From positions 1 through 64,000 of the forward strand of contig JBMFMB010000006.1 of assembly GCA_049970895.1 (NCBI GenBank): a stretch of DNA of 64,000 nt, read 5' to 3'. Position numbers and translations under genes: made by a program. Under the pieces are notes generated by a model. The model saw nothing but the letters and a program-made list of their open reading frames with translations. It was not told where the DNA came from and did not search any database. This stretch comes from Candidatus Bathyarchaeia archaeon (lineage in GTDB: Archaea; Thermoproteota; Bathyarchaeia; Bathyarchaeales; Bathycorpusculaceae). This document shows positions 31,917 to 48,162 of this stretch, piece by piece (within the stretch, counting starts at the first letter, position 1; each line of letters starts with the position of its first letter).

Positions 31917-33107
31917 TTATAGGGTCCTGGTTTCTGTTTCAGCCAATTCTATTTTGATCTCCTTTTTGATGCTGTCTATGAGTTTTTCGACGCTAATAAT
32001 GTTTGCTTCTGGCGGATAAACCCCTGCCTTAACATCTTTTGCTTTTGCAAGTTCTAGGGCGGCAAGAGCCGCTGGTAAGGCTGTTGCTTTGGCTGCGTCT
32101 TTGCATGCTATGCGATATTTGATAATGTGTTCCTTTCTCTCCTTGACGCCTTTAACAACTGTTGCTAAGCCTACGCCTCCTAATGCATAATCACCTAAGC
32201 GCTCGTAAAGAGGTCCGATTGACTTTTCTGTTTCTTCAGGCGGCGTTATTTCAGATAGCGCCAACGTTATGGCAACTGCGATTTCTCTTGCCTTAAACGT
32301 GTGATCTCCTACTTTGATTTCTTTGAGGCTTGTTAACCCAAGTGAAGAGAAAACTTTTGCTACATCGTTTAGATCTGAGGGCCAGACTCCTCCCTTGTTG
32401 CATACATTCTTTACTTTAATATATCTTGGAATCGTAATGGGTTCCGGATGACCTGCATGGGCAACTTCCCAAACGCCTATTGGTTCTGGAAACTCAAAAT
32501 GCTCCGGCTCTGAAAGAGCTTTAATCATCATCCATTCTCCATTTTTATAGGTTGGAATCATGCCTGTTATCGCGTGAAAATAGTGGTCCACGATGGCTGG
32601 CCCCATTGTGGGGTCTATGGCTGTCCAAATCCAATAGGTTCTAATTTCGAAAACTTCGTCGAGCTTTTGCGCTCCATACCAAGCTAGTAGGTTTGTTATT
32701 CCTGGCGTTGCTCCCAACCCAATGATGGCTGTAATCTTTCTCTTTTGCGCTTCTTCATGAAGTTTCAAGGCTTCCTCTGTGGCGTCATAATCATCATTTA
32801 TATCAACAAATTTAACGCCAGCCCTTAATGCAGCTTTCAAAACGGGAACACCAAATCTGTGGAAGGGGCCGAGTGCGCTGACAGCTACATCAAAGCCTTT
32901 TATGGCTTTTACTAAAGAATCTTCTGATGCAGCATCAACATGAAGAGTATCAATGTTGCCACCGATTATTTCCGCTGTTTCCTTAGCCTTCCCAATGTTT
33001 TTGTCGCCTATGGTTATTTCCGCTGTTGGGTCAAGGTGTTGCAGTTCAGAAACTATTACCGAACCAATGTGGCCTGCTCCACCAAGAACAAGTATTTTCG
33101 TTGGCAT
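31917..33107 (-). CDS. Saccharopine dehydrogenase-fold oxidoreductase (paralog 1)
   Basis: LGGAGHIG Rossmann motif, GPF, VDINDD, GLGATPG and HPEP. Confidence 0.85.
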   Translation of the reverse strand: MPTKILVLGGAGHIGSVIVSELQHLDPTAEITIGDKNIGKAKETAEIIGGNIDTLHVDAASEDSLVKAIKGFDVAVSALGPFHRFGVPVLKAALRAGVKFVDINDDYDATEEALKLHEEAQKRKITAIIGLGATPGITNLLAWYGAQKLDEVFEIRTYWIWTAIDPTMGPAIVDHYFHAITGMIPTYKNGEWMMIKALSEPEHFEFPEPIGVWEVAHAGHPEPITIPRYIKVKNVCNKGGVWPSDLNDVAKVFSSLGLTSLKEIKVGDHTFKAREIAVAITLALSEITPPEETEKSIGPLYERLGDYALGGVGLATVVKGVKERKEHIIKYRIACKDAAKATALPAALAALELAKAKDVKAGVYPPEANIISVEKLIDSIKKEIKIELAETETRTL

Positions 33108-33177
33108 GATGAAATTGATTAGGGCAAAGAACTTATAAATTTTTGCTGATTCAAGCTTACCATTACGATGCTCAAGA

Positions 33178-33400
33178 ATGTTTGGATACATGGAAAAATT
33201 CGCAGAATTAATCTATCAACAAACAAGATAACCGAGGAATTTCCAGACCAGAATACTCTTAAGATGTTTCTCGGTGGGAATGAATCGGCAACATTATTAT
33301 ATTTATTTTAAAGAAGTTAAAGAGGGAATTGACCCATTGAATCCAGAAAACAAGTTAATATTCATGACAAGTCCTTTAACTGGAACCCTATCCGAGCAAG
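33178..33400 (+). pseudogene. N-terminal remnant of a second aldehyde:ferredoxin oxidoreductase
   Basis: MFGYM.K / RINLST / FLGG / IDPLNPENKLIFMTSPLTGT across frameshifts, matching the N-terminus of the intact AOR downstream. Confidence 0.75.
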
Positions 33401-33754: not shown

Positions 33755-35602
33755 ATGTCAGGGGGTTATATGGGGAAAATTCTGAGAGTGAACATGACCA
33801 CTAAAAGCTTGAAGGTTGAGCCAACTTCTAAAGAGGTTGCAAGAAAATACTTAGGCGGTAAAGGTTACGCCACATACCTACTATACAAGTATTTAAAGGA
33901 GTATGAAAAGGCAGGGATTTCGCCAAAAGACATTGACGCATTGGATCCAGAAAACGTCCTAATATTTGCAACAGGCCCGGGGACTGGTGTTCCGGGCTTT
34001 CCGTCGTCTGGCAGATACCATGTGATGGCTTTGAAATCGCCTCTGACCGGCTCTATTGGAAGCGCAAATTCTGGTGGGGAGTTCGGGCCCTTCCTAAAGT
34101 TTTCAGGGTTTGACGCTGTTATAATTGAAGGAGACTCAGAGACTCCGGTGTACTTGGCCATTGTGAATGGCGAAGCCGAGTTAAGGGATGCAAGTAGCCT
34201 ATGGAGCAAAAACGTTTTCGACACTTGCAGAATATTGAGGGATAGGGTTGGCGGCAAAAACACAAGCGTAGCCTGCATCGGGCCTGCTGGGGAAAATTTG
34301 GCGTACATGGCATGCATAGTCAATGACGAGCATAGGGCTGCGGGTAGAACAGGCTTAGGAGCTGTTATGGGCTCGAAAAGGCTTAAGGCGATTGTTGTTT
34401 CCGGAGAGGAAAAGGTTCCGGTTGCCGAACCTAAAAAATTTGCTGAAGTTTCAAGAAGATGCCTAGACGCGATGAAGAATAATGCTGTTACGGGTGTTGG
34501 ACTGCCAACATATGGCACAGCCATCCTCATAAACATAATTAACACTGCTGGCGGGTTGCCTTACAAGAACTGGCAGACAGGCGTGAATCCGGACGCGGAG
34601 AAAATAAGTGGAGAAACTCTTGCAGAAACATATCTGACAAGCCGAAGGGCATGCTGGGGCTGCCCAATTGGATGTGGAAGAGTCACCAGCGTCAAATCTG
34701 GGCCATTCCAAGTTTTAGCGTCAGAAGGTCCCGAATACGAGTCAGTTTGGGCTTTGGGAAGCAGCACAGCCGTAAAAGACTTAGACGCAGTTGTTAAGGC
34801 CAACCACTACTGCGATGAACTTGGACTGGACCCGATAAGCATGGGCTCAACAATAGCAGCAGCTATGGAACTCAATGAGAGGGGATACATTCCACAAGAA
34901 GATTTGCAAGGCTTAGACTTGCGCTTTGGCAACGCTGCAGCGCTTGTGGAAGCGGTTTGGCGAACAGCCTATAAGACCGGATTTGGAAAATATTTGGCTT
35001 TAGGTTCGAAGAAGCTCTGCGAAATTTACGGGCATCCAGAACTCTCTATGAGCGTTAAGGGCCTAGAAATGCCAGCCTACGATCCTAGAGCCATTAAAGG
35101 CATAGGCTTGAACTATGCAACAGCCAACAGAGGAGGCTGCCATGTAACAGGATACACCGTTTCGCCTGAAGTCTTGGGAATACCGGAGAAAATTGACCCG
35201 TTGAAGGCTGAAGGAAAAGCGAAATGGGTTAAAATATTCCAAGACTTCACATGCGTGGTTAACTCAACCGTAAACTGCTTATTCACAACATTCGCCCTAG
35301 GCGCAAAGGATTATGCAGAGCTTTTGTCGGCTGTCACTGGCTGGGAATTAACAGAGGATGAAATCCTAAAAATTGGAGAGCGCATCTATAACCTAGAAAG
35401 GGTTATAATCAACAAGTACGGATTCGATGGAAAAGACGACGCACTGCCAAGACGCTTGCTAGAAGAGCCCATGCCAGAAGGTCCAGCAAAAGGCCAAGTA
35501 ACAGAACTTGAAAAAATGAAGGATGAGTATTACAAGCTTCGCGGCTGGGTTAACGGCGTACCAACAAGGGAGAAGTTGGCTGAGCTTGAAATAGAAATTT
35601 AG
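33755..35602 (+). CDS. aor: Tungsten-dependent aldehyde:ferredoxin oxidoreductase
   Basis: GYMGKILRVN, KSPLTG, GRTGLGAVMGSK, CWGCPIGC, GPEYE, DELGLD and YYKLRGW motifs. Confidence 0.95.
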   Translation: MSGGYMGKILRVNMTTKSLKVEPTSKEVARKYLGGKGYATYLLYKYLKEYEKAGISPKDIDALDPENVLIFATGPGTGVPGFPSSGRYHVMALKSPLTGSIGSANSGGEFGPFLKFSGFDAVIIEGDSETPVYLAIVNGEAELRDASSLWSKNVFDTCRILRDRVGGKNTSVACIGPAGENLAYMACIVNDEHRAAGRTGLGAVMGSKRLKAIVVSGEEKVPVAEPKKFAEVSRRCLDAMKNNAVTGVGLPTYGTAILINIINTAGGLPYKNWQTGVNPDAEKISGETLAETYLTSRRACWGCPIGCGRVTSVKSGPFQVLASEGPEYESVWALGSSTAVKDLDAVVKANHYCDELGLDPISMGSTIAAAMELNERGYIPQEDLQGLDLRFGNAAALVEAVWRTAYKTGFGKYLALGSKKLCEIYGHPELSMSVKGLEMPAYDPRAIKGIGLNYATANRGGCHVTGYTVSPEVLGIPEKIDPLKAEGKAKWVKIFQDFTCVVNSTVNCLFTTFALGAKDYAELLSAVTGWELTEDEILKIGERIYNLERVIINKYGFDGKDDALPRRLLEEPMPEGPAKGQVTELEKMKDEYYKLRGWVNGVPTREKLAELEIEI

Positions 35603-35949: not shown

Positions 35950-37225
35950 AGCATTCATATAAGTGATAAGTTCCCAGAGGCACTGCAGATAGAAGTTACA
36001 AACAGGTGCAACTTTAACTGTCAAATATGCATTAGGCGTGTTTGGAACGCAAAACCCCTAAACATGGACATAGCCTTATACAAAAATCGCAGAGGAGTGT
36101 TTCCTATTTTTGAAGAGGCTTATGCTCTACGGTTTTGGTGAGTCCTTCATCCACCCAAAATTCTTGAAAAGCTCCGAATAGCCAGAAAACGCCTTCCAGA
36201 CAGTGGAGAAATCCTCATAAGCACAAACGGCTCGCTGATAAATCCGGAAATTGCCAGCAAAATTGTGAAGGAAATAGGCGTGGATTCCGTATCCTTTTCT
36301 ATAGATACTGTTAGCCAAGACAAACTGAACCGTTTAAGAGAAGGCTCTGACTTCAACTTGATAGCCAACAACATTGAAACGTCGGCGAAAAGCAAGGATG
36401 AAGCTAAAAAAGATTCCACGCTAGGTTTGGAAACAGTCATCATGAAAGACAACTTTTCAGATCTTCCAGAACTCGTCAAGTTTGCAGCTGAGAATGATGT
36501 TGATTATATTCTAGCGTCCCATGTTGTGTTATACACGCCTAAAATTTTTGCAAAACCATGTATCTAACTTTGAGCAAAACAACCATTAAAATATTAAAGC
36601 CTTCTTTAAGGCATGACGCTTTATACGCGAATCCGCCATAGAGCTTTTCGGCAAAGCCTACAGCATGAAAATGGAGACAGCCTCAACAGAGCTTATCGAA
36701 GCTTTTGGACCGAAGCTGAAAAGGTTATTGGATTAATCTGCCATTGCTCTTAAGTTCAACAGATAAGCTTGAGGCATTAACCAGTTTATAAGAGGTTTTC
36801 CATGAAAGCGTAAAGATTGCCTATGAATACCAAATCGATTTGAGGCCGCCAAACTTGTACTCCGATGCCAAGGAAAGGAAGTGCCCCTACATGGAAAAAA
36901 GACTTTGGTTGTAAGATGGGGCAGTCTTCCATGCCAAGAATTCATGTACTCCCATCCAGTCTATGTTAACGCCCACAAAAAGACGTTCATGAAGTAATTT
37001 TGGAGATGCAATAAAAGAAGGATTAAAGATGTTTGGCAGAGGAAGCCCACGCCAACTTTAGAGAGGTTAGGCTAGACATAGCTACAAACTTTCCTTGGTG
37101 TGAAGACTGCCATATTCGACTCAGGATGCTTTTACACAAAGGCTAATGAAGTTGACTGTTATGCAAATGCACCAACATGCGACGAATGCCTATACAGCGT
37201 CGGTTTGGCACAATGCAACATCTAA
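35950..37225 (+). pseudogene. Radical SAM/SPASM protein (tungsten-oxidoreductase maturase type), multiply frameshifted
   Basis: IEVTNRCNFNCQIC, YGFGE..HP, STNGSL and Cys-rich C-terminus DCYANAPTCDECLYSVGLAQCNI spread over several frames; follows aor-moaD. Confidence 0.8.
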
Positions 37226-37230
37226 AAGGC

Positions 37231-38541
37231 TTATTCGAGGAGAAGCGAGACCGGCCCAGCCTTCCATGCTTCTATGGCTGCTTTCAGTTCGGGATGCTGC
37301 TCGGCGTATTGCTCCAGCGGAATCTTATTCATTACGGCTTCTATGGCTTGTCTGAAGGCTTTAGCTCCAGCCCTAGGTCCCATGGGATGGGCGTGGATTG
37401 CCCCGCCAGCTCCTATGGCTATGTCTGTGCCCAAATCGCTTATTAGTTGTGGGACATGAAGCTGCGTTATTCCACCTGATGGCATAGGCAACGTGGGCTT
37501 AATGTTGTGCATTGGGAATAGCATGGTTCTGCCAGCTTTCAGGTACTTCTCCCTTAGGAAGAAGGGTTGCTTTCCATAGGGTGCCGGATAAACCAGTATG
37601 TCCGCACCCGCAAGCCTCGGAAGCTTCGCCAAGGTCAAGTGGGATGACATACCCGACTCTGGATCCTCGTAGATGGCTCCAGCGAAGTCCATGTGGCCTA
37701 AAATTGGAACCTTTATGCTTGGATCTTCCGCCAAGGCTTTTAAAACGCCTATTCCAGCCACTAGGTGGTTGACCATTATGGCGTTTGCCCCAAGCTCTAT
37801 GACTTTCTCTGCAAACTCGAAGATTTTGGGCGCGTCCGCAGTCACATTTATCGTATACATTTTCTTTTCCCCAGTTTCTTGGGTGGCCTTGTCAACAACC
37901 TCCATATACTTAACGATTCTGTCTTCGACAGTGTTGAAGGGTGCATTAGCCAAAAGTTCATCATCTTTAACAAAGTCTGCGCCACCCACTAAAGCTTCAT
38001 AGGCGAGTTTTGCGCCCACATCTGGCGGGTAGCCAGTGCACGGCTTAATCATGTTGTTAAGTATTGGTCTTGCCTTTATTTTCAAGTATTCCCTTAAGCC
38101 TTGAACCCCGAATTTGGGGCCTTTAAACATTTCAAGATAGCTTTTTGGAAAGGTTAAATCCACTAATTTTAGCCTTCCAGCCATGGAAATGTTTCCGATA
38201 ACCGTTGTAAGAAGCATTGAAATTTCGTTCATGAAATTTTCGTAGGGGTAGGCTATCTGAACAATATAACGCCTCAATTTCACGTCGGCTGGGATCTCAT
38301 ACTCAAAGTCTGGAACCTCGTTTATGGCGATCACTTTGGCTATGTGCCTTTTCCGCAGCTCAACGGTTTCGCCTGGAACACGAATCCACGTTCCAGTGCT
38401 CTGCTCAACAGCCACAGCCATGGCAATCTTGTCCACGGGCCAGTCTCTTGGAACAGCCGCGTAGTATGTGGCTATAACATATTTTTCCGAGTCTATCCCC
38501 TCTGGCAAAGCTAATGGAAGGGCTTCAATTTCTTCTGACAT
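37231..38541 (-). CDS. RuBisCO-like protein (form IV)
   Basis: EQSTGTW, GN, KPCTG, DFVKDDE, GHMD, YGK, PSGG and GAGGAIHAHP. K177, R295 and H327 equivalents are substituted. Confidence 0.92.
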   Translation of the reverse strand: MSEEIEALPLALPEGIDSEKYVIATYYAAVPRDWPVDKIAMAVAVEQSTGTWIRVPGETVELRKRHIAKVIAINEVPDFEYEIPADVKLRRYIVQIAYPYENFMNEISMLLTTVIGNISMAGRLKLVDLTFPKSYLEMFKGPKFGVQGLREYLKIKARPILNNMIKPCTGYPPDVGAKLAYEALVGGADFVKDDELLANAPFNTVEDRIVKYMEVVDKATQETGEKKMYTINVTADAPKIFEFAEKVIELGANAIMVNHLVAGIGVLKALAEDPSIKVPILGHMDFAGAIYEDPESGMSSHLTLAKLPRLAGADILVYPAPYGKQPFFLREKYLKAGRTMLFPMHNIKPTLPMPSGGITQLHVPQLISDLGTDIAIGAGGAIHAHPMGPRAGAKAFRQAIEAVMNKIPLEQYAEQHPELKAAIEAWKAGPVSLLLE

Positions 38542-38608
38542 GAAACTTCACCAATTTAAATTCTGATAGATGAATTGTTTGCAGTGGTAAATATGTGTAT
38601 GTGTGCTT

Positions 38609-40162
38609 TTATTCAGCTCTTAAGTTTAGCCTCCGATACATTTGCCTATTATTCTTGTAGATACCCTTAAACTCTTTGAAGACTTTCTCATAAATGGCAG
38701 CGTTCTGCATGTTCGGCTTATAAACAGCGTCTATTTTCACCAGCTTTTCCGCATCCTCAAAGCTTTTGACATAGCCCAGAGCAATCATAGCTATTATTGC
38801 GGCTCCTTTTGCGCCAGCCTCTTTCGGGTCGCTGACCCTGTTTATTCTCTTGTTTAGGACATCTGCAAATATTTGGCACCAAACGTTGGATATTGCGCCG
38901 CCGCCTATGATGTTTATGCTTTCAGCTTTTCCGGCAAGCTTTTCCATATAGAACAATGCCCACTTCATGTTTAGGGCTACGCCTTCAAAAACAGCCCGAA
39001 CCATGTGCTCTCGTGTGTGTTCTAGGCTGAGGTTGTGGAATCCTCCTCTTACAGTTGGGTCGTCCAGCGGGGCCCTTTCGCCGAAGAGCCATGGCGTAAA
39101 TATTAAGCCGTCCGCGCCAGGGTTGATTCTCGCTGCCATTTCACCAAAAAGTTCATAGACATCTTCTCTGCTTTCCTTAAACATTGTGTTTTTCAGCCAG
39201 TCTAAGCATGCCCCGGCTGTTTCTTGTTCCGCCACGCAAAGGTACATTTCTGGGTTTGCACTGCAAATGCAGCCAATGTAATGGAACAAGTCCTTCTTCC
39301 TTTCCGAGAGGTGGCAGCCAAGCCAACCGCTTGTTCCAACATAGGCGTGGATTTTCCCCTCTTTTACTGCACCTGAGCCTACAGCTGCTGAAGCCACGTC
39401 CCCGGCTCCAACGACCACTGGTGTGCCTTCCAGCAGTCCTGTCTCTGCGGCTGCTTCCGCCGTGAGTTTGCCAGCTATGTCTGTTGCCTTCATTATTTCT
39501 GGAAGTTTGGCTCTGTCTATCCCATACTTTTTGAGGATTGCCTCTGACCAGTTGAATCTTCCCATTCTTGTGTCCATCATCCACCATATGTTGGCGTAGT
39601 CTCTGCTTATTACGAAGTTTCCAGTGCACTTGTAGACGAGGTAGTCTTTGCAGTCGAGGAACTTGTAGGTTTCAGCGTAAATTTTCGGCTGCTCCTCTTT
39701 AATCCATAAGATTTTGCATATCGGATCTTTCCCAACATGCCCGTAAATCCCGCCAGTTACGCTTAGAAACCTTATTAGGGTGAGCAGCCCATATCCGGCT
39801 ATTTTTATTATTCCGCGGCTCATTTTTTCAGCTTGCCCTTTCGCTCTTGTGTCAAGCCATATCATGCACGGCATTAGCGGCTCGCCGTCTTTGTCCACTG
39901 GAAGCGTTCCAGACATTTGAGTTGCAAATATGATGGCAGCAATGTCGGAAGGCTTAACATTCGTCTTTTCCAGAAGTGCCTTTGTGGTTTTTGTGACGGC
40001 GTTCCACCAGTCTAACGGTTTTTGTTCTGCATATCCGCTTTTTGGAAAGTATACTGGATATTCTGCAGAGGCATGTCCAACTATTTCGCCATCTAACCGC
40101 ACCAGCACAGCCTTATTGCTTGTTGTCCCAGTGTCGTGGGCGAGTATATATTTGCCTTTCAA
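38609..40162 (-). CDS. FGGY-family carbohydrate kinase (xylulokinase-like)
   Basis: HDTGTT, WLDTR, GAGD, GTSGW, PWLFGERAP, RAVFEGVA and GGGA motifs; start overlaps the upstream stop codon. Confidence 0.92.
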   Translation of the reverse strand: MKGKYILAHDTGTTSNKAVLVRLDGEIVGHASAEYPVYFPKSGYAEQKPLDWWNAVTKTTKALLEKTNVKPSDIAAIIFATQMSGTLPVDKDGEPLMPCMIWLDTRAKGQAEKMSRGIIKIAGYGLLTLIRFLSVTGGIYGHVGKDPICKILWIKEEQPKIYAETYKFLDCKDYLVYKCTGNFVISRDYANIWWMMDTRMGRFNWSEAILKKYGIDRAKLPEIMKATDIAGKLTAEAAAETGLLEGTPVVVGAGDVASAAVGSGAVKEGKIHAYVGTSGWLGCHLSERKKDLFHYIGCICSANPEMYLCVAEQETAGACLDWLKNTMFKESREDVYELFGEMAARINPGADGLIFTPWLFGERAPLDDPTVRGGFHNLSLEHTREHMVRAVFEGVALNMKWALFYMEKLAGKAESINIIGGGAISNVWCQIFADVLNKRINRVSDPKEAGAKGAAIIAMIALGYVKSFEDAEKLVKIDAVYKPNMQNAAIYEKVFKEFKGIYKNNRQMYRRLNLRAE

Positions 40163-41388
40163 GGTCCTTTAACCAGCGATTCTAGGCTTAATCTGTGAAC
40201 TTTGCCATCTTTATCGATGTGCTCGACACGGATGGGCAAGCCCACAGTTCCGCCTATTCTTATCTTCTCCTTTGCAAGCGTAAACAACTCAATCGGGTCC
40301 ACGGCGGCTTCTGGTGGAAAAACGCCCTTCAGCTTTATCTTCCCCATAGCCATAAGCATGGTTCCCAAGGCGGCTGGCACACCTGTCCCTTCCCGCATTC
40401 CCATGCCCCTCGAAGCCATAGAAAACACATATGTGCTTGGCTGACCTTTCTTCTTGCCTTTAACAACTATTTTTAGACAACCCATGGGCTCAGTTATCCC
40501 GGCTTCCTTCAAGAGTTTAGGCCTCTGATGCAAAGCGAAAGCCACTGCAAAATCTATTGGCGCAATCTTCTTCCCGTCAACTTCTATTGGCTCCTCGCTT
40601 GTCATTCCGAGGCGCACAATACCCTTAATAAGCTCGGCATATGCTGGGGGCAAAACCAAGCCGAGGTTTGTTACGCGGCGAACACCCTTAATATACCTTG
40701 GAAGAGTTATCGTCTCTGGATGAGGATAGGCGTAAACCCTATATGTTCCGACGTCTGCAAACTCAACATCCTCTTCTAAGGCTTTGCCGCTTTCCTCCAA
40801 AACCTTAACAGTCTTAAATTCTCCATCAAGAAACATCGGAACTGGTATTATCATGGAGTGTATCCTATGCTTAACAACCGCTGGCCCTTCGGTTTCCTCC
40901 CCTCCGTGAGCATGATAAATGTCTATGGCTTCAACCTCGTCCAGAAGCATGTCAGCACAAAATCTAACAAGAACATTTGCAACGCCTGGAGAGCTGCCCA
41001 TTCCTATAAGGGCTGAAATCCCAGCCTTTTTGGCTTCACCATCCATTTTTAAAAGCGCCTCAGTGGCGTCAACATCATCACATATATCCACATGGTTTAC
41101 CCCAGCCGCGATGCATGCTTTCAAAACTATTGGGGCGTACTTGTAGAATGGGCCAACGCAGCTTAATATGACATCAGAACCCTTAATCGTCTTTTGAAGC
41201 CGGCTTGAATCTGTAACGTCAATTTTTACCGCTGAAACGCCTTTAACGCCTATTTCTGATGCAAACTTCTTCGCCCTTTCAAAGGCGACATCTCCTATGA
41301 CAACTTCTGAAAACATTCCGCTTGATGCTAGAATTCTGGTGGCCATGCTTCCAATGGTTCCAGCTCCACCCAAAACTGTAACTTTCAT
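40159..41388 (-). CDS. Saccharopine dehydrogenase-fold oxidoreductase (paralog 2)
   Basis: LGGAGTIG, CVGPFY, VDICDD, GMGSSPG, HPET and GVFPPEA motifs. Confidence 0.87.
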   Translation of the reverse strand: MKVTVLGGAGTIGSMATRILASSGMFSEVVIGDVAFERAKKFASEIGVKGVSAVKIDVTDSSRLQKTIKGSDVILSCVGPFYKYAPIVLKACIAAGVNHVDICDDVDATEALLKMDGEAKKAGISALIGMGSSPGVANVLVRFCADMLLDEVEAIDIYHAHGGEETEGPAVVKHRIHSMIIPVPMFLDGEFKTVKVLEESGKALEEDVEFADVGTYRVYAYPHPETITLPRYIKGVRRVTNLGLVLPPAYAELIKGIVRLGMTSEEPIEVDGKKIAPIDFAVAFALHQRPKLLKEAGITEPMGCLKIVVKGKKKGQPSTYVFSMASRGMGMREGTGVPAALGTMLMAMGKIKLKGVFPPEAAVDPIELFTLAKEKIRIGGTVGLPIRVEHIDKDGKVHRLSLESLVKGP

Positions 41389-41499
41389 GTCATACACCAA
41401 CCTTTCAGAAATTAATGTTAGTCTTAAGATTATTTAGCATTTGTGGAACATAGACAAACAGCAAAACATATCAATTAAAATTCGTAAAACAGAGGAAAC

Positions 41500-42744
41500 A
41501 TGGGAAAAGCAGAAGTACATTCTTACCGTTGGGTTGTCCTGTTCACGTATATGCTTGTGGCTGTTGTTTCCCAAATCCTTTGGCTAAACTTTGCCCCAAT
41601 AACAACGCCTATAATGACATCCATATTCAGAGTAACAGAGTCTGACGTTGGACTCTTATCAATGGTTTGGCCATTGCTCTTCATTCCCGTATCCATTCCA
41701 GCTGGAATGCTCATAGATAAGAAGGGCTTCAAGTTTGGGGTTTCGATAGGAGCCCTAATAATGGCTGTTTTCGCTGTTCTGCGAATCTTTTCAGGAGAAA
41801 ACTTCACAATACTTCTCATATTCCAATCCTGCGCCGCGCTGGGTCAACCATTTGTTTTTAACGCTGTATCAAAACTCGTAACGTTATGGTTCCCCTTTGA
41901 AGAGCGTGCATTAGCCACAGGAATAGGCATAATGGGCCAATACATTGGAATGATAGTGGCTATGATGCTCACACCTTTTCTTGTGCCAAAGCCAAACATC
42001 GCATTATTGACCAACATGCTTGTAATCTATGCGGCAGTATCCGTGATAAGTGCAGCTCTCTTCATCATATTGGCTAGGGAAAAACCAAAATCTACCAGTC
42101 ATGAGGCAACAGCAGAAGAGGTTAAGGCTTCCATCGCATTCAAGGACATTAAGGGGTTCTTTGGGAAAAAGGATTTCATAATCCTTGAAGCCCTATTCTT
42201 CATTGGGGTTGGACTTTTCACGGCACTACTCACATGGCTAGAAACAATCTTAAACACACGGGGATTAGGCGCCACAGACGCCGGGCTAATCGGCGGAATA
42301 ATCATCATTGGAGGAATATTCGGTTCTCTAGCCATTCCTGGAATTTCCGACAAAACAGCACGGAGGAAACCCTTCATAATTATAGACTTGGCGGTTGCCG
42401 CAGTCATACTTTACTTTTTTGCTGAAACTGGTGATTTCCTAATTTTGGCCGTTATGGGCTTTATTTTGGGCTTCTTCCTCATGTCAGCCCTGCCAATAGG
42501 CCTAGAAATGTCAGCTGAAATTGTCGGTTCAGCTTTAGCTGGAAGTGCATCAAGCTTTCTTTGGCTATTCTCCCAGGCTGGCTCAGTAATTTTAATCTTC
42601 TTCATGGACGCTGTTAAATCTGCGACAGAAAGCCTCTACCCGTCAAATCCCTACTATCTTTCAGTTATATCCATATTCATATTAGACATAATCGCTTTGG
42701 TGCTTTGCCTACTGCTTAAAGAAACAGCGAAAGCCAAGGGTTAG
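41500..42744 (+). CDS. MFS transporter, FLVCR/SLC49-like
   Basis: About 12 TM helices; YRWVVL...WLNFAPI, GQPF and WFPFEERALAT motifs. Confidence 0.85.
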   Translation: MGKAEVHSYRWVVLFTYMLVAVVSQILWLNFAPITTPIMTSIFRVTESDVGLLSMVWPLLFIPVSIPAGMLIDKKGFKFGVSIGALIMAVFAVLRIFSGENFTILLIFQSCAALGQPFVFNAVSKLVTLWFPFEERALATGIGIMGQYIGMIVAMMLTPFLVPKPNIALLTNMLVIYAAVSVISAALFIILAREKPKSTSHEATAEEVKASIAFKDIKGFFGKKDFIILEALFFIGVGLFTALLTWLETILNTRGLGATDAGLIGGIIIIGGIFGSLAIPGISDKTARRKPFIIIDLAVAAVILYFFAETGDFLILAVMGFILGFFLMSALPIGLEMSAEIVGSALAGSASSFLWLFSQAGSVILIFFMDAVKSATESLYPSNPYYLSVISIFILDIIALVLCLLLKETAKAKG

Positions 42745-43430
42745 ATTCTGAAAACCTTAAACTTGCTCTTAAGAGCCTCCAAATCTGTGCTTCCAAACTT
42801 GGACTGGAGCTTTCGCTTTAGGGCTTCCCAGCTCACAGCATCCTTTCCGCCAAGCATTGTGGCAACAAACTGAACTTTTGCACATTCCTCCACCATCCTA
42901 TTTAAGAGAGATGCTTCCTCAACCGTTGAGCCAACAGTGATAATACCATGATTCTCCAAAATGACAGCGTTAAAGTTCCTAATCAGCCTTTGAACAGCCT
43001 CAGCTAACGCTTTAGACCCTGGCAACTCAAAGGGCACTATAGGCACTCCATTGGGAATATAAAGAAACATTTCCACCTGCAACGGAATTATCTCAACCCC
43101 AGCTATCCCGAAAGCTGTGGCAAATGGGGCATGCGTGTGAACAATCCCGTTGACATCATTTCTGACACGGTAAATTGCAGTATGTAAAGGTGTCTCTATT
43201 GAAGGCTCTTTAGCACCCTCAACCTTATTTCCATCTAAATCTACAACAATAAAATCTTCAGCCTCCAAGAAACCCATAGAAACACCCGAAGGTTTTATCA
43301 AAACCCTATCTGTTCCAGTAATTCGCGCGCTAACATTCCCTTCAGTTCCAACCACAAGGCCATAATTATATAATTGTCTACCAACATTTACTAAACTTTC
43401 CCTTAAAGCGTAAACAACATCCTTGCTCAT
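42741..43430 (-). CDS. Class II aldolase/adducin family (FucA-like)
   Basis: EGNVS, KPSG, PSIETPLH, HTH and NHG motifs. Confidence 0.9.
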   Translation of the reverse strand: MSKDVVYALRESLVNVGRQLYNYGLVVGTEGNVSARITGTDRVLIKPSGVSMGFLEAEDFIVVDLDGNKVEGAKEPSIETPLHTAIYRVRNDVNGIVHTHAPFATAFGIAGVEIIPLQVEMFLYIPNGVPIVPFELPGSKALAEAVQRLIRNFNAVILENHGIITVGSTVEEASLLNRMVEECAKVQFVATMLGGKDAVSWEALKRKLQSKFGSTDLEALKSKFKVFRI

Positions 43431-43588
43431 AATAAACCTCCCTATAGCGCACAAAATCATATTTTTAATTTACCTTTTAGTTTTTGCTAAGATTTCCGTT
43501 CAACGTTACTAAACTTTCAAGTGATATCTAGGTTTTATCCAAACCTCCGCAAAGTTTTATTTTCACCTCTGTAGAGATGAAAAGTGCA

Positions 43589-45118
43589 TTAATACAAGGT
43601 TTTCCCAATCAGATGTATTATGTCGCTTCTTGTCAATATCCCTATTAATTTATTTTTGTTTGTTTTGTCAAATACTAAAATTCTGCCAATGTTGTGTTTA
43701 TTCATTTTTGCAAGGGCTTCAGCGATGGAGTTGTCAGGGTAAATTGTGATCAGTTTTTTAGTGCAGATTTCACCGATGGAAACCTTGTTTCGCTTTTCTT
43801 CTACAATTTTCATTGCATCTTGGAGTGTTACTATTCCGATGACGTTGCCCGATTCGTCTGTAACTGGAAAGCCTACATGGTGGTATGTGACTATTTTTTC
43901 AAGAAATTGGTTAACAGATAAAGTCGAAGGCAACGTCATCACGTCTCTTGTCATAACTTCTTCCACTTTAACTCTTCTTAGTAGGCTGATTTCGCTTAGT
44001 TTGGGCTTGACGAAGAGTTCCGCCGCTGGGATTTGCATGCCTTTTTCCCTCATAGTTTTCATTTCCTGCAATGCACTGTTTCTTTTGTACGCTGACAATT
44101 GAAGTAGGTGCACTAATGCTTGAGGCTCCTCTTCAATATTCTTGGTTATTATGACACAGCTGGCTAAAGCCCTTTTAAAAAATTCCTCACCTTTTCTGGT
44201 CCTGATAATTACAATTGACCACTCTTTTAACGGGCTTGCTCCACCAAGGCTTAAGTCGGCATATTCTGAGGTGAAGTCTACACATGTTTTGCAGCGGTTT
44301 AGGATATGAGGCTTAACTTTAGAAATGGAGATGCTGATCTGCCGATTTTCCATGTTTACAATGTACGAGTCTGCGGACAAATCGATGCTTTGAATTTCAT
44401 TAGCAGCGATATAATACTCATCTAAGAGATACTCCAACAGCGTGCTTAATGAGAAGCCCCAAAGGCAGAAAAGTCCAATAACTATTTCAAGGCTTTCCAT
44501 GATTTTGTGCTGCCATGCTTCAAGTTTCCTAAGTCCAAGAACATGGCATGGTATGCCCACGAAGGCAATATGGGTCTTGCCATGTTCAAAAACAGCGCGT
44601 CCGTATGCTTGGGCAACGGCCGAAGGCACAATTTTAGAGTCTACAGCGGAGAGCATGTCATCTGGCACAAGACTTATGGAAGACTTAACCTTCAGGGATG
44701 TTATTGGCGACGCTTCAGAAGTTATGGCGCAATCAATAATTTTTTCGTTAATGGCATAATTAAGAAGCGCATTGACAACTCCTCCGCTTTTTGTTGCGGC
44801 TCTTATGCATGGATTGGCAGCTTGTGCGAGCAGAATTTCCCTATAGTAACCCAAGTTTTCTCTTCTTCTTGGTGCATCGGCAACGAACCTTAATGCTTCA
44901 TAGGTAAGTGCGTCGGTGTGGGGGCATATGTCATAGCAAATTGGGCATGTATCGATATGTTCGGAGCAGTCGTAAAGTCTTTGCGGCTTTTCATGCTCTA
45001 CTTTTATTGCGTGGATGGGGCATGCGGCTTCACATGCACCGCACACCGTGCAAAAACCGGGCTGTATTATCATGCGCTCCAAATCGTTAAAGGCTATTAG
45101 TTTATTGCTTGGCTGCAT
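43589..45118 (-). CDS. FrhB/FpoF-like F420-interacting subunit with N-terminal ferredoxin domain and C-terminal CBS pair
   Basis: CTVCGACEAACP, CPICYDICP, SGGVV, VGIPC, IGLFC and CKTCVDFTSEYADLSLG, followed by two CBS repeats. Confidence 0.88.
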   Translation of the reverse strand: MQPSNKLIAFNDLERMIIQPGFCTVCGACEAACPIHAIKVEHEKPQRLYDCSEHIDTCPICYDICPHTDALTYEALRFVADAPRRRENLGYYREILLAQAANPCIRAATKSGGVVNALLNYAINEKIIDCAITSEASPITSLKVKSSISLVPDDMLSAVDSKIVPSAVAQAYGRAVFEHGKTHIAFVGIPCHVLGLRKLEAWQHKIMESLEIVIGLFCLWGFSLSTLLEYLLDEYYIAANEIQSIDLSADSYIVNMENRQISISISKVKPHILNRCKTCVDFTSEYADLSLGGASPLKEWSIVIIRTRKGEEFFKRALASCVIITKNIEEEPQALVHLLQLSAYKRNSALQEMKTMREKGMQIPAAELFVKPKLSEISLLRRVKVEEVMTRDVMTLPSTLSVNQFLEKIVTYHHVGFPVTDESGNVIGIVTLQDAMKIVEEKRNKVSIGEICTKKLITIYPDNSIAEALAKMNKHNIGRILVFDKTNKNKLIGILTRSDIIHLIGKTLY

Positions 45119-45170: not shown

Positions 45171-46670
45171 TTAGGGCATCAGCTGGAATTGCTGTATAAC
45201 TGGTTCTATAAGGTTTAAAACTATGTTTGGGTAAACGCCCAAAACAACTATTGTAGCGGCAAGGATGAAGATTGGAATAAGTAACTTTTTTGGTTCTTTG
45301 ATCTTGCCTTCCTCTTTTGGCTTTTTTGCATACATGTAGTTTATCAGCCTTAACAGATATGCAGCTTGGATAACGCTGGTTAGTACGCCTACAATGGCTA
45401 ACCAACCCATATTCGCCTCTATGGCAGATGTGAAAACCAAGTATTTTGCTATAAAACCGGCGAAAGCCGGAACTCCTGCGAATGAAAATGCTGCTAGAAC
45501 TAGGGCTAGGCTTGTAAGCGGCATTCTTCTGCCAACTCCGGAAAAATCTTCCATGTTTTTAATTCCCATGCTGTTGAAAACTCCGATGATCATGAATGCG
45601 AGGGCTGTTGTAATTCCGCCAGCAAGAAAGAAGTATAGGTTTCCCATTATTCCAAGAGGTGTCACGCTTGTTATTGCCACAAGATTGTAGCCCACGTCCG
45701 CAATGCAAACATATGCAATTAAACGTTTAACATCCCTTTCCGTTAGCGCAAGTAGATTGCCAACAATCATGGTTAATGCGGAGAGAACTGCAAACATAAA
45801 ATTCCATGGCAAAACTGTTGGAGGCGTTAAAATATAAATTAGCACCCTTAACAGCACATAGTAACTTGCCTGATCAACGAGTGCCGATAAGAACGCCGAA
45901 GAAGAAGCTGGAGCTGCTGTGTATGCGTCTGGGAGCCACATATGGAATGGCACAACTGCAGCCTCGATGGAGTAACCAGCCGCAATGAAAACGAATACTA
46001 TTTCAAGCAGACGCTTATCAGCAAGAGCTGCGAGGGCGTGTTTCACCTCCCAGAAATTAAGTGTGCCAGTAATAGCGTAAATCACTGAGAGTCCATAGAT
46101 TATGAAGGCCGAAGCCATTATTATCATAACCAGATACTTTATTGTGGCATGCAGAGACCTTGCAGTTTTTTGGTATAGCATCAAGAAGCTTGAGCCGGCT
46201 GCCGTTGCCTCCCAGAAAATAAATAGTGTTAAAAAGTCGCCGGCCAGAACGGTTCCAGTAACACAGCCAATAATCATTAAAGTAACAGCGTAATAGCGTT
46301 CTGAAAGTTCCTTGTCAGAGTCTATGAAAAACAGGCTGTAAAGGATGGTGACTGCGCTGACACCAGTGAATATTATCGCCATATAAACTGATACTGCATC
46401 CACCAAAAACATGCTTGAGAAAATGGCTGAGGCATCTCCAGTTAATGATAAATTTAGGAAGGGTCTAGGCGATGGCTCGGCAAAATATTTCAACGCCAAG
46501 TTTGCCACAGCCACGCCGGTAACAATGAAAATTATTAGAAACCAAAAGAGTTTTAAGAGAATATTTTTCCCGCCTTTCACTTTGTTGATAATTTTAACGA
46601 CCGGTATTGTTAAAAGAGAAAATAAAACGAACGCAATTATTGGTAAAGAGGCATCCAGAAGCTCTATCAT
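45171..46670 (-). CDS. Antiporter-like membrane subunit (NuoN/FpoN-like)
   Basis: FIFWE, PFHMWLPDAYTAAP, KRLIAY and GVPAFAGFIAK; third antiporter gene of the series. Confidence 0.85.
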   Translation of the reverse strand: MIELLDASLPIIAFVLFSLLTIPVVKIINKVKGGKNILLKLFWFLIIFIVTGVAVANLALKYFAEPSPRPFLNLSLTGDASAIFSSMFLVDAVSVYMAIIFTGVSAVTILYSLFFIDSDKELSERYYAVTLMIIGCVTGTVLAGDFLTLFIFWEATAAGSSFLMLYQKTARSLHATIKYLVMIIMASAFIIYGLSVIYAITGTLNFWEVKHALAALADKRLLEIVFVFIAAGYSIEAAVVPFHMWLPDAYTAAPASSSAFLSALVDQASYYVLLRVLIYILTPPTVLPWNFMFAVLSALTMIVGNLLALTERDVKRLIAYVCIADVGYNLVAITSVTPLGIMGNLYFFLAGGITTALAFMIIGVFNSMGIKNMEDFSGVGRRMPLTSLALVLAAFSFAGVPAFAGFIAKYLVFTSAIEANMGWLAIVGVLTSVIQAAYLLRLINYMYAKKPKEEGKIKEPKKLLIPIFILAATIVVLGVYPNIVLNLIEPVIQQFQLMP

Positions 46671-46683
46671 CACGCGTTCCTCG

Positions 46684-48162
46684 CTAAACAAGGCTTGCAC
46701 TTGATATTAGTTGTGTGAAAAATGTGGGCCATACTCCAAGGGCAACGGTGAGCACGGCTAGAATAATCATGGCTGTCTTCATGAAGGATAAGGGGTCTGT
46801 TGCCTTTTCATGTTTTGTTGAGCCTAAAAAGACGTGGCTTAAGAACCTTAATGCGTAGGCTAGTGATAAAACCGTGGCTACTAACATTAGTGCTGTTGGG
46901 ATTAGATAGAAGTTGTCAATGTTGATCGCTTGAAATGCTCCAACAAATATTAGGAATTCGCTCATGAAACAAGCGAATGGTGGTACTCCCGCGATGCTGA
47001 GGGCTGCCACTGTTGATGATGTAGCTGTTATGGGCATTTGCCCCGCTAACCCGCCCATCTCCCTAATATCGCGAATTTCAAGTTGCTTCATAACCGCGCC
47101 TGCAGACAAGAAGAATAAGCCTTTACTCACAGCATGATTTACAAGGTGTAAAACCGTTCCCGTCACTGGTTCTTGGAATGGGAAAAGTGAGAGCCCAAAA
47201 AGAACGTAGCCCATGTGGGCTATGCTGGAATAGGCAATTATCCGTTTTATATCCGTCTCCACCAAAGCAATGAGGGAGCCGAAAAAGGCGGATATTATTC
47301 CAAAAATAGTTAATCCATGCAGAAACATGCTTCCGAAACTTGTTGCCATGACAGCTGGAAAAACCGTCCCTAAGGATACACGTAGTATCGCGTAGGCACC
47401 AGCGCTGATTATTACACCACTTAATAATGCGGACATGGGAGCCGGAGCCTCAGAATGCGCATCTGGCAACCACATGTGGACTGGAACAGCGGCCATTTTG
47501 ACGGCAAAGCCTACCGTGAGCGAGAGCAGAATCCATTTGACAAGTTCTGGGTTCGCCGCCTTTAATGCGTTTTGTGTTTGGAACATGTCTAAGTCGCCTG
47601 TAACCATGAATATTGCGCCTATACCCAGTAAGACGAAGATTGCGCCCGCGTGTGTGAATATGAAGAATTTGAAGGCTGCCCTGTAGGGCTCTCTGTAGCC
47701 CCATCCGCCTATTATGAAGTATGATGGCAAAAGCATTAGTTCCCAGCAGAAATAGAAGAGCATTAGGTTTGATGTTATGAAGACGCCGACGAGCCCTATT
47801 GAAAGTAATGTTAAAAGAGTGTAGTATCCAGCTAGTCCTTTCTTCTCTTGCATGTAATTTATGGAAAAGAGTGCGGCTGCCAAAATCAGTATTAGAGTTA
47901 TGATTGCCATTGAGAGGCTTATTCCATCAGCGAAAAGTGTGAAGGATGCGTGGAGAACTGGAATCCAATAGTAAGATTCAACATACTTGTGGTTTGCTCC
48001 GTTAAGGATTGTTGGCACGATTATTGAAAGAAGTGCGATGTTGATCACGCAGATTAGTGCTATAATAAAGGCTGGATATCTGGAAGATTTTTTGCCCAAA
48101 AAGTAAACGAATGGAGCAGCTGCTGCGGGCAATATTATTGTTAATAGAAGTGTGTTCTGCAT
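46684..48162 (-). CDS. Antiporter-like membrane subunit (NuoM/FpoM-like)
   Basis: FCWE, VKMAAVPVHMWLPDAHSEAP, KRIIAYSS and NHAVSK motifs. Confidence 0.9.
   Translation of the reverse strand: MQNTLLLTIILPAAAAPFVYFLGKKSSRYPAFIIALICVINIALLSIIVPTILNGANHKYVESYYWIPVLHASFTLFADGISLSMAIITLILILAAALFSINYMQEKKGLAGYYTLLTLLSIGLVGVFITSNLMLFYFCWELMLLPSYFIIGGWGYREPYRAAFKFFIFTHAGAIFVLLGIGAIFMVTGDLDMFQTQNALKAANPELVKWILLSLTVGFAVKMAAVPVHMWLPDAHSEAPAPMSALLSGVIISAGAYAILRVSLGTVFPAVMATSFGSMFLHGLTIFGIISAFFGSLIALVETDIKRIIAYSSIAHMGYVLFGLSLFPFQEPVTGTVLHLVNHAVSKGLFFLSAGAVMKQLEIRDIREMGGLAGQMPITATSSTVAALSIAGVPPFACFMSEFLIFVGAFQAINIDNFYLIPTALMLVATVLSLAYALRFLSHVFLGSTKHEKATDPLSFMKTAMIILAVLTVALGVWPTFFTQLISSASLV

Follow-up and report, generated by a model that had tools for sequence, protein, structure and literature searches.

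In a 64,000-nucleotide stretch of DNA from a Candidatus Bathyarchaeia archaeon (GenBank assembly GCA_049970895.1, contig JBMFMB010000006.1, positions 1 to 64,000 of the forward strand; hereafter the window), a gene for a RuBisCO-like protein (RLP) is joined in one operon with genes for a kinase of the FGGY family and for an NAD(P) oxidoreductase with the saccharopine dehydrogenase (SDH) fold. This trio probably specifies a hitherto undescribed pathway; its substrate would be a sugar-like compound with an amino group, either present from the start or acquired on the way. Cassettes of this kind recur, in a patchy distribution, in many anaerobic archaea and bacteria. Their constant part is the FGGY kinase together with an RLP of a distinct clade; the third member swaps among the SDH-fold enzyme and two types of class-III aminotransferase, here termed AT3a and AT3b. 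The strongest evidence for an amine–carbonyl interconversion in the pathway is precisely this exchange, because three unrelated or distantly related amine/carbonyl enzymes fill one slot. The host genome (1.34 Mb, 97% complete) is that of an archaeon from a hot spring, and the RLP gene is its only member of the RuBisCO family.

The three genes lie on the minus strand and are read in the order SDH-fold oxidoreductase (40159–41400; 413 aa), FGGY kinase (38609–40162; 517 aa) and RLP, of form IV (37231–38541; 436 aa). Their Pfam matches are Sacchrp_dh_NADP (62.7 bits) and Sacchrp_dh_C (48.6 bits) for the first, FGGY_N (185.5 bits) and FGGY_C (109.8 bits) for the second, and RuBisCO_large (192.2 bits) and RuBisCO_large_N (52.6 bits) for the third. 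The TGA stop codon of the oxidoreductase gene shares bases with the TTG start codon of the kinase gene, in the form TTGA; this is the overlap described in the initial annotation of the locus. Kinase and RLP genes are separated by 67 nt, with a ribosome-binding-like GGTGA a few bases 5′ of the RLP ATG. The initial annotation had also drawn in a divergent transporter gene of the major facilitator superfamily (MFS) and a class II aldolase gene. All five open reading frames (ORFs) of 37231–43460 are intact, and both ORF calls and Pfam matches place them where, and in the families in which, that annotation had put them; none of the five proteins reaches an NCBIfam equivalog cut-off. The transcription unit itself is smaller than five genes: a 99-nt spacer parts the MFS gene from the operon, and the aldolase and MFS genes converge, which places the former outside the unit.

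A scan for RLPs, with one genome per species, gave 422 confirmed relatives, of which the best 80 loci were kept. Fourteen of these loci come from close Bathyarchaeia relatives, and 66 are distant, from Hodarchaeota, Baldrarchaeota, Theionarchaea, Archaeoglobi, Methanolliviera, Chloroflexota, Bacillota, Actinomycetota, Acidobacteriota and Cryosericota. The closest loci are 88–97% identical. Full flanks (3.2 kb or more on the upstream side of the RLP gene and 1.6 kb or more on the downstream side) are available for 47 of the 66 distant loci. An FGGY kinase gene lies within 4 kb of the RLP gene in 39 of these 47, and an amine-handling gene within the same distance in 37 (AT3a in 17, SDH-fold in 16 and AT3b in four). 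An SDH-fold gene and a class-III gene occur together in none of the 47; in the partial locus L051, an SDH-fold gene is accompanied by an ArgD-like gene. The window trio fits the cassette so defined: its RLP has Asn117, Cys168, Met284 and Lys324, and it is accompanied by an FGGY kinase and one amine enzyme.

Judged by eye, the partner types interleave on the RLP tree, in its archaeal and bacterial halves alike. Among archaea, the SDH-fold enzyme is the partner in Bathyarchaeia, Archaeoglobi and Methanolliviera, and AT3a in Baldrarchaeota, Scotarchaeum and UBA186; among bacteria, the SDH-fold enzyme occurs in Actinomycetota and Dehalococcoidia, AT3b in Bacillota and Anaerolineaceae, and AT3a in other Anaerolineae. 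AT3a is a class-III aminotransferase of the 4-aminobutyrate aminotransferase/archaeal type (Pfam Aminotran_3, 270.7 bits) that reaches no equivalog cut-off. AT3b resembles glutamate-1-semialdehyde aminomutase, D-phenylglycine aminotransferase and β-phenylalanine aminotransferase; identity with HemL was considered and dismissed on its score (291 against a cut-off of 527). In three Baldrarchaeota loci (L017, L018 and L020), AT3a and a HisC-type aminotransferase both precede the kinase. Ten full-flank loci have none of these amine genes within 4 kb; among them, L024 and L041 have AT3a just past that limit, and in L064 and L065 a class-III gene is found farther away and on the opposite strand. Pfam scans of the flank genes revealed no recurrent enzyme beyond the trio, and TIM or RpiB paralogs stand next to the trio in none of the loci. 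Acyl-CoA dehydrogenase genes occur near seven loci, with only 26–34% identity to a representative; they are taken as chance neighbours in genomes rich in such genes.

The SDH-fold protein has the two-domain architecture of the saccharopine dehydrogenase/carboxyspermidine dehydrogenase family, with an NAD(P)-binding N-terminal domain and a C-terminal domain. Its AlphaFold model (pLDDT, the predicted local distance difference test score, 93.1) is closest to the solved folds of carboxyspermidine dehydrogenases, with template modelling (TM) scores of 0.76–0.80 and 19–23% sequence identity. Next come L-lysine dehydrogenase, saccharopine reductases, BioU, homospermidine synthases and meso-diaminopimelate dehydrogenases; within the top 44 structural ranks, all solved neighbours of known function are C–N oxidoreductases. 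In NCBIfam, the best match is carboxynorspermidine synthase, at 50.7 bits against a cut-off of 800, and a look-up in a protein atlas returned generic ‘saccharopine dehydrogenase family’ clusters only. The protein is predicted to be the amine- or imine-handling member of the cassette. There is a precedent for the interchange of such enzymes: in biotin synthesis, the SDH-fold protein BioU does the job of the class-III aminotransferase BioA. BioU works on another substrate in another pathway, and its structural similarity to our model is distant (TM about 0.5). The initial annotation had proposed an amine step from enzyme families; this idea gains independent support both from the replacement of the SDH-fold enzyme by class-III enzymes and from the C–N oxidoreductases among the structural neighbours.

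The window also holds a second SDH-fold gene (31917–33191, minus strand), 7 kb off and with neither kinase nor RLP gene beside it. It is 39% identical to the operon copy over a match at 31950–33104, and BioU is among its weak NCBIfam matches. Similar paralogs of the SDH-fold protein (33–40% identity) are encoded in four further genomes of the Bathyarchaeia sample, in none of which the cassette RLP was found.

Within Bathyarchaeia, the cassette is an accessory trait, patchy in occurrence and passed on as one block. Of 151 genomes sampled evenly, each at least 80% complete, only three (G000, G351 and G213) encode RLPs at least 62% identical to that of the window, and other matches reach at most 46%. 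The same three genomes, and no others, have SDH-fold orthologs of at least 58% identity (others at most 40%) and kinase orthologs of at least 63% identity (others at most 38%), in each case adjoining the RLP gene. Related genomes are non-independent samples, and no statistic is drawn from these counts. Since the three genes co-occur side by side both in these three genomes and across phyla, their adjacency is more than chance. Co-occurrence in other genomes was a prediction of the initial annotation, and both surveys bear it out (kinase in 39 and amine gene in 37 of 47 distant loci; adjacency in three of 151 Bathyarchaeia).

The best matches of the RLP are MtnW enolases (253 bits to PDB 2oek; 348.7 bits to NCBIfam PRK09549). 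Its scores stay below the cut-offs of both MtnW equivalogs (348.7 vs 409 for PRK09549; 300.1 vs 513.6 for TIGR03332), and genuine MtnW genes in a Bacillota sample score 547–792. The form III model TIGR03326 (293.5 vs 497.45) and the OiaX equivalog (197.7 vs 700) are not reached either. Lys166, Lys192, Asp194 and Glu195 align with Lys147, Lys173, Asp175 and Glu176 of Geobacillus kaustophilus MtnW (2oek). Asn117 aligns with Lys98 of that enzyme, which we take to be its catalytic general base. Kept in the RLP are the carbamate lysine (Lys192), two metal ligands (Asp194 and Glu195), Lys166, His283, a Ser-Gly-Gly motif at 355–357, Glu46, Asn117 and Lys324; the Lys-Asp-Glu carbamate/metal set is common to the whole superfamily and does not discriminate among RLP types.

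For a wider comparison, 106 RuBisCO-family sequences were found and five exact duplicates dropped; the resulting alignment of 101 distinct sequences included four MtnW above the TIGR03332 cut-off and three of form III type. Next, the fragment L015 and L081, a second copy of the window sequence, were taken out; between alignment and tree, five sequences were omitted. Residues were counted over 83 rows at least 55% identical to the window RLP, among them five duplicates that had been fetched again and two rows from a sister group in Bacillota. Asn117, Lys166, Cys168, Lys192, Asp194, Glu195, His283, Lys324, Gly356 and Gly357 are present in all 83 rows; Glu46, Thr51 and Trp52 are present in 82, the remaining row being a fragment, and Met284 in 81. 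At the positions of Glu46, Asn117, Cys168, Met284 and Lys324, the four MtnW rows have Gly, Lys, Met or Val, Pro and Ser, respectively. At positions 168, 284 and 287, the three form III rows (L089, L111 and L013_3569) have Lys, Arg and His or Tyr, where the clade has Cys168, Met284 and Ala287. These positions, basic in form III, presumably make up the second phosphate site of RuBisCO. On this residue pattern, the RLP is predicted to keep the carbamate, metal and enolisation core and one phosphate site, and to have lost the second phosphate site.

In a maximum-likelihood tree, built by a quick method and rooted at the midpoint, the kinase-linked RLPs form a clade of 80 rows with a support of 99, apart from the MtnW rows L096–L099; small Bacillota groups with other gene contexts fall between the two. 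The clade is probably the Archaeoglobus fulgidus-type lineage of older classifications. With scores below all NCBIfam cut-offs, Asn117 and a well-supported clade of its own, the RLP stands outside the characterised clades, as the proposal of the initial annotation required. Three assignments can be set aside on these data: that of MtnW (both cut-offs unreached, Asn in place of the catalytic Lys, a separate supported clade), that of a carboxylating form III RuBisCO (basic residues replaced by Cys168, Met284 and Ala287; TIGR03326 not reached) and that of OiaX (a score far under the equivalog cut-off).

Some RuBisCO-family genes outside the clade have gene contexts of their own. The nearest sister group, L100–L103 from Bacillota (G120, G195, G112 and G079), has Leu at the position of Met284 and Gly at that of Ser355; its RLP gene stands between a GlpP-like antiterminator gene and a PEP_hydrolase-like gene (PF09370), followed by ComB-like or UPF0261 genes, a context for which we know of no function. 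In another small group, the RLP gene adjoins a nitrogenase-component-1-type (Oxidored_nitro) gene (L104:1456–4206; Bacillota G159). A Hodarchaeota locus contains, divergent from the cassette, a second RuBisCO-family gene with the Lys/Arg/His pattern of form III (L013:2044–4840, minus strand); it is followed by an FGGY-like kinase gene whose product is 27% identical to that of the window, and such a pairing of a carboxylase-type RuBisCO with an FGGY kinase is unusual.

Taken together, gene content, operon structure, inheritance as a block, the residue pattern and the exclusion from the MtnW, OiaX and carboxylase groups lead to the following proposal, to which we give an even chance: the trio turns a free, sugar-like primary-amine compound, such as an amino-polyol or an amino-deoxy-ketose, into an ordinary sugar phosphate. 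In the first step, the amine enzyme would swap the amine for a carbonyl, as suggested by the families involved and by their mutual replacement. The FGGY kinase would then phosphorylate a hydroxyl group at the expense of ATP. This protein carries both FGGY domains and is nearest to xylulokinase and gluconokinase in NCBIfam; its best match, XylB, falls short of the cut-off (354.2 vs 380.25), but the score is near enough that a xylulose-like substrate is possible. Finally, judging from the residues kept and lost, the RLP would enolise the mono-phosphorylated ketone in a reaction dependent on Mg2+ and carbamate, to give a carbonyl-shifted isomer or an epimer; the ketone would be enolised next to a C–H group by the carbamylated Lys192–Mg2+ site, Lys166 and His283. 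The presence of a kinase implies that the substrate starts unphosphorylated, which would make uptake or salvage likelier than de novo synthesis. A bolder version of this proposal is possible, although we would sooner expect it to fail than to hold: the cassette may be a self-contained, undescribed three-step route by which a free amino-polyol or amino-deoxy-sugar enters central metabolism, with the RLP catalysing a fifth kind of RLP reaction. On a ketose monophosphate, this would be a carbonyl migration or an epimerisation; alternatively, in view of the invariant Glu46, Asn117 and Lys324 that MtnW has lost, CO2 would be added to or released from a keto phosphate derived from the amine.

Several observations weigh against this proposal. 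The class-III fold includes racemases, lyases and mutases, and the best matches of AT3a include Leu/Met racemase and ammonia-lyase; conversion of an amine to a carbonyl is hence not the sole possible chemistry. Xylulokinase and gluconokinase, the nearest relatives of the kinase, act on a hydroxyl remote from the carbonyl, which sits uneasily with the phosphate site retained in the RLP, since that site, as we understand it, adjoins the reactive carbons in RuBisCO. The counterparts of Glu46, Asn117 and Lys324 in RuBisCO are, we believe, tied to CO2 addition; a plain isomerase would leave their conservation unexplained, and the pattern suggests a chemistry that may go beyond proton shuffling. No amine gene lies within 4 kb of the RLP gene in ten of the 47 loci with full flanks; L050, L052 and L058 consist of kinase and RLP genes only, and L021–L023 of the RLP gene alone. 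The flanks are heterogeneous and often contain housekeeping genes (gyrB, tRNA ligases, glutamine synthetase, dGTPase), and transporter genes are near some loci only. With such varied flanks and sporadic transporters, salvage fits as well as catabolism.

The same three genes could also be run in the opposite direction, although we consider this unlikely: a free ketose or polyol would be phosphorylated, rearranged by the RLP and then aminated. The product, an amino-polyol phosphate, could for instance lead on to an iminosugar, to a compatible solute or to a lipid head group, and the MFS protein would act as the exporter. Class-III aminotransferases and SDH-fold enzymes aminate readily, and carboxyspermidine dehydrogenase and BioU can be cited as the nearest folds; a class-III aminotransferase aminates fructose-6-phosphate in azasugar biosynthesis. 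Several loci offer genes that would suit this direction, namely a Nit-family C–N hydrolase gene after the RLP gene in L014 (such hydrolases can pull glutamine-dependent aminations), an MFS_3 ‘secretion effector’-type transporter gene at the opening of some Anaerolineae loci, and HAD or SurE phosphatase genes flanking L033, L043, L048 and L076. Biosynthetic routes of this kind would, however, usually start from phosphorylated metabolites and need no FGGY kinase; the scanned flanks have no recurrent phosphatase or dehydrogenase partner, and the cassette is kept in a streamlined 1.34-Mb genome. A variant of methionine salvage or 5-deoxypentose salvage has a slimmer chance still. Here the kinase would act on a 5-substituted pentulose derived from 5′-methylthioadenosine (MTA) or 5′-deoxyadenosine, the RLP would rearrange the product and the amine enzyme would finish the route, with the aldolase as a branch of the type of the dihydroxyacetone phosphate (DHAP) shunt; alternative fates of 5-methylthioribulose-1-phosphate (MTRu-1-P) are described in a review (PMC6302742). 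That MtnW is the best sequence match of the RLP speaks for such a variant, as do Met284, Ala287 and Tyr/Phe318, hydrophobic at the second-phosphate positions of form III much as in the MtnW rows, and the canonical mtnW loci L096 and L098, which also hold an aminotransferase gene and a class II aldolase-family gene. The genome also codes, outside the window, for an isomerase of the IF-2B family and for phosphorylases of the PNP family: the sole IF-2B-family gene lies on contig C14 and the PNP_UDP_1 genes on contigs C10, C13, C19 and C70, the window being on C6. The statement in the initial annotation that the window lacks mtnA and MTA phosphorylase genes accordingly holds for the families searched, IF-2B and PNP_UDP_1; mtnK and apionate genes were not searched for. 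Against salvage stand the replacement of the catalytic Lys of MtnW by Asn in 83 of 83 rows, the separation of the clade from MtnW with both MtnW cut-offs unreached, a kinase of the FGGY rather than the MtnK type, a cassette without isomerase, phosphatase or dioxygenase, and the low aldolase score with MtnB (89.2 vs 137). Occurrence in three of 151 Bathyarchaeia would also be odd for salvage of universal by-products of S-adenosylmethionine.

Should the RLP be a carboxylase or decarboxylase, which we rate as no more probable than salvage, an amino hydroxy acid would be deaminated and phosphorylated, and the RLP would remove or add CO2 at a β-keto-acid phosphate, as OiaX does, to give a ketose phosphate for the aldolase. 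The clade conserves Glu46, Asn117 and Lys324, all three of which are missing from the MtnW rows; the MFS protein weakly resembles organic-anion subfamilies, an amino-acid permease gene follows the RLP gene in L041, and the second-best NCBIfam match of the aldolase is 3-oxo-tetronate-4-phosphate decarboxylase (128.1 vs 250). Decarboxylase and transcarboxylase activities of RLPs are known (PMC6302742). On the other side, similarity to OiaX is low (197.7 vs 700) and nothing direct indicates a carboxylate substrate. To our knowledge, the established acid-sugar routes do not use FGGY kinases. It is very improbable indeed that the three genes are mere neighbours that share no pathway. The widely varying flanks and the ten of 47 full-flank loci that have no nearby amine gene would agree with chance adjacency; the TTGA stop/start overlap, the kinase gene beside the RLP gene in 39 of 47 distant loci from several phyla, and close, adjacent orthologs of the trio in the same three of 151 genomes all contradict it.

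Among characterised systems, MtnW/YkrW, the enolase acting on 2,3-diketo-5-methylthiopentyl-1-phosphate (DK-MTP-1-P) in Bacillus and Geobacillus (PDB 2oek, 2zvi), shares with the window RLP the fold, the Lys-Asp-Glu site, the equivalent of Lys166 and non-basic residues at the second-phosphate positions of RuBisCO. It differs in having Lys98 where the window protein has Asn117, and Gly and Ser where the latter has Glu46 and Lys324; the cassette pairs its RLP with an FGGY kinase and has no MtnX, MtnD, MtnA or MtnK. In D-apiose catabolism, the kinase belongs to another family than FGGY, and we know of no amine step in the OiaX/OiaT route. The catabolic order of that route (oxidation, phosphorylation, then the RLP, with OiaX as 3-oxo-isoapionate-4-phosphate decarboxylase and OiaT as transcarboxylase/hydrolase; PMC6302742) is the same as that proposed for the cassette. 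The reaction considered most likely for the window RLP, an enolisation-driven carbonyl migration on a mono-phosphorylated ketose, is by description like that of the Rhodospirillum rubrum RLP, a 5-methylthioribulose-1-phosphate 1,3-isomerase of the MTA–isoprenoid shunt (PMC6302742); the partners of that shunt, MtnP, MtnA and a cupin, are not in the cassette. Fuculose- and rhamnulose-type routes and the DHAP shunt lead from an FGGY or MtnK kinase through a class II aldolase to DHAP and an aldehyde. FGGY and aldolase genes are likewise within 4 kb of each other in the lineage of the window; these routes, however, work without an RLP or an amine enzyme, and the aldolase gene is here outside the conserved cassette.

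At least four RLP reactions are named in PMC6302742: the MtnW enolase, the R. rubrum MTRu-1-P 1,3-isomerase, the apiose-pathway decarboxylase and the transcarboxylase/hydrolase. PMC7325909 describes the range of RLP functions as unknown and offers epimerases as a guess; PMC7895386 merely excludes RLPs from its analysis. Full-text literature, searched without supplements and subscription papers, yielded no description of an RLP combined with an FGGY kinase and an SDH-fold or class-III enzyme, in keeping with the view in the initial annotation that no pathway with this gene set had been described. The clade is widespread (422 relatives) and its active-site pattern is strictly conserved. Databases pull it toward ‘methionine salvage’, an assignment that the residue and tree tests contradict, and the interchangeable amine enzyme provides a handle for finding the substrate. 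Identification of the latter would add a reaction to the RuBisCO superfamily and correct the annotation of many anaerobe genomes; it would also show the use of a nitrogen-bearing carbon compound by uncultured Bathyarchaeia, Anaerolineae, Dehalococcoidia and Archaeoglobi of sediments and hot springs.

The two remaining genes are best regarded as neighbours in this lineage only. The MFS transporter gene (41500–42744, plus strand; 414 aa; MFS_1, 121.4 bits) is divergent from the operon. The class II aldolase/adducin-family gene (42741–43460, minus strand; 239 aa; Aldolase_II, 181.3 bits) had previously been ended at 43430, which is the second in-frame ATG; the full ORF extends to 43460. Twelve of the 14 close-relative loci extend far enough upstream to show the block aldolase–MFS–SDH–kinase–RLP, and ten of the 12 have it; L010 and L012 have neither MFS nor aldolase gene despite 8 kb of upstream sequence. 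Among the 66 distant loci, just two have an aldolase homolog (L064, 31% identity; L080, 42%). The aldolase family occurs in 68 of the 151 sampled Bathyarchaeia genomes. One ortholog (72%) lies beside the cassette in G351, and others (55–58%) are found in G309, G236, G330 and G303, four genomes that gave no cassette RLP. In these (L118–L121), the aldolase gene belongs to a conserved block, between genes for F420-0:γ-glutamyl ligase and SCP2, which is a hint that its role has to do with F420 metabolism and not with the RLP cassette. In G351, a 76% ortholog of the MFS protein is likewise encoded beside the cassette. The cassette-bearing G213 gave no MFS match at E ≤ 1e-30, and 52% homologs occur in two genomes that have no RLP match at E ≤ 1e-60.

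In NCBIfam, the MFS protein weakly resembles subfamilies of the organic-anion type, all far under their cut-offs. The aldolase, although a member of its Pfam family, reaches none of the specific class II aldolase cut-offs (FucA, AraD, MtnB, OtnC, ribulose-1-phosphate aldolase); its best NCBIfam match is PRK06557 (174.2 vs 251), ahead of OtnC, the 3-oxo-tetronate-4-phosphate decarboxylase mentioned above, with MtnB at the score already given. Membership of the module is uncertain for the MFS protein, a lineage-specific neighbour that may provide an uptake step, and doubtful for the aldolase, also a lineage-specific neighbour. The two might add uptake and cleavage to DHAP and an aldehyde, a view that draws on synteny within one lineage. 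Against the five-gene module of the initial annotation stand the mere two of 66 distant loci with an aldolase homolog, aldolase orthologs that occur away from the cassette, and the missing MFS match in G213 together with the MFS homologs of genomes without an RLP match. The interpretation in that annotation therefore stands in part: support was gained for a link to an amine and for the RLP clade being novel, and not for the five-gene module or the ending by aldol cleavage.

A number of cassettes carry additional genes. A nitroreductase-family gene stands between kinase and RLP genes in four close Bathyarchaeia relatives, L007 (7209–7745), L010, L012 and L016, though not in the window; in one Tissierellales locus, a nitroreductase plus ferredoxin-domain gene comes after the cassette (L028:10858–11808), and FMN_red-type genes flank L057 and L080. 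Nitroreductase and FMN-reductase genes recur in a few lineages, not generally. In loci of Thermoflexales type (L035:7075–7998, plus strand; also L026, L032 and L034), a gene for a repeat-rich coiled-coil protein that matches no family lies between kinase and RLP genes, its start and stop codons abutting both. The Nit-family gene of Scotarchaeum L014 is one of a pair, with a DUF2848 gene, directly after the RLP gene (L014:9328–10766, plus strand); this is the only lineage with such a pair among the loci examined.

On the other side of the operon, an aldehyde:ferredoxin oxidoreductase (AOR) gene (33755–35602) is co-oriented with a ThiS-like gene and a radical-SAM/SPASM gene. AOR was considered as an aldehyde-oxidising end of the pathway and set aside; it belongs to its own co-oriented set, which converges on the RLP operon and is regarded as a separate unit. 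The radical-SAM/SPASM gene (35959–37222, plus strand), which comes after the AOR and ThiS-like genes, is split over three frames, with tblastn pieces of 63%, 48% and 40% identity, and is intact in close relatives (L001:9318–10610); it is either a frameshifted pseudogene or the product of an assembly error. Upstream of the class II aldolase gene, and directly downstream of genes for Nuo/Mrp-type antiporter-like subunits (45171–48162), lies a gene for an FrhB/FpoF-like homolog of the F420-dehydrogenase β-subunit (43589–45118, minus strand); the protein has a 4Fe-4S motif at its N terminus and two CBS domains at its C terminus.

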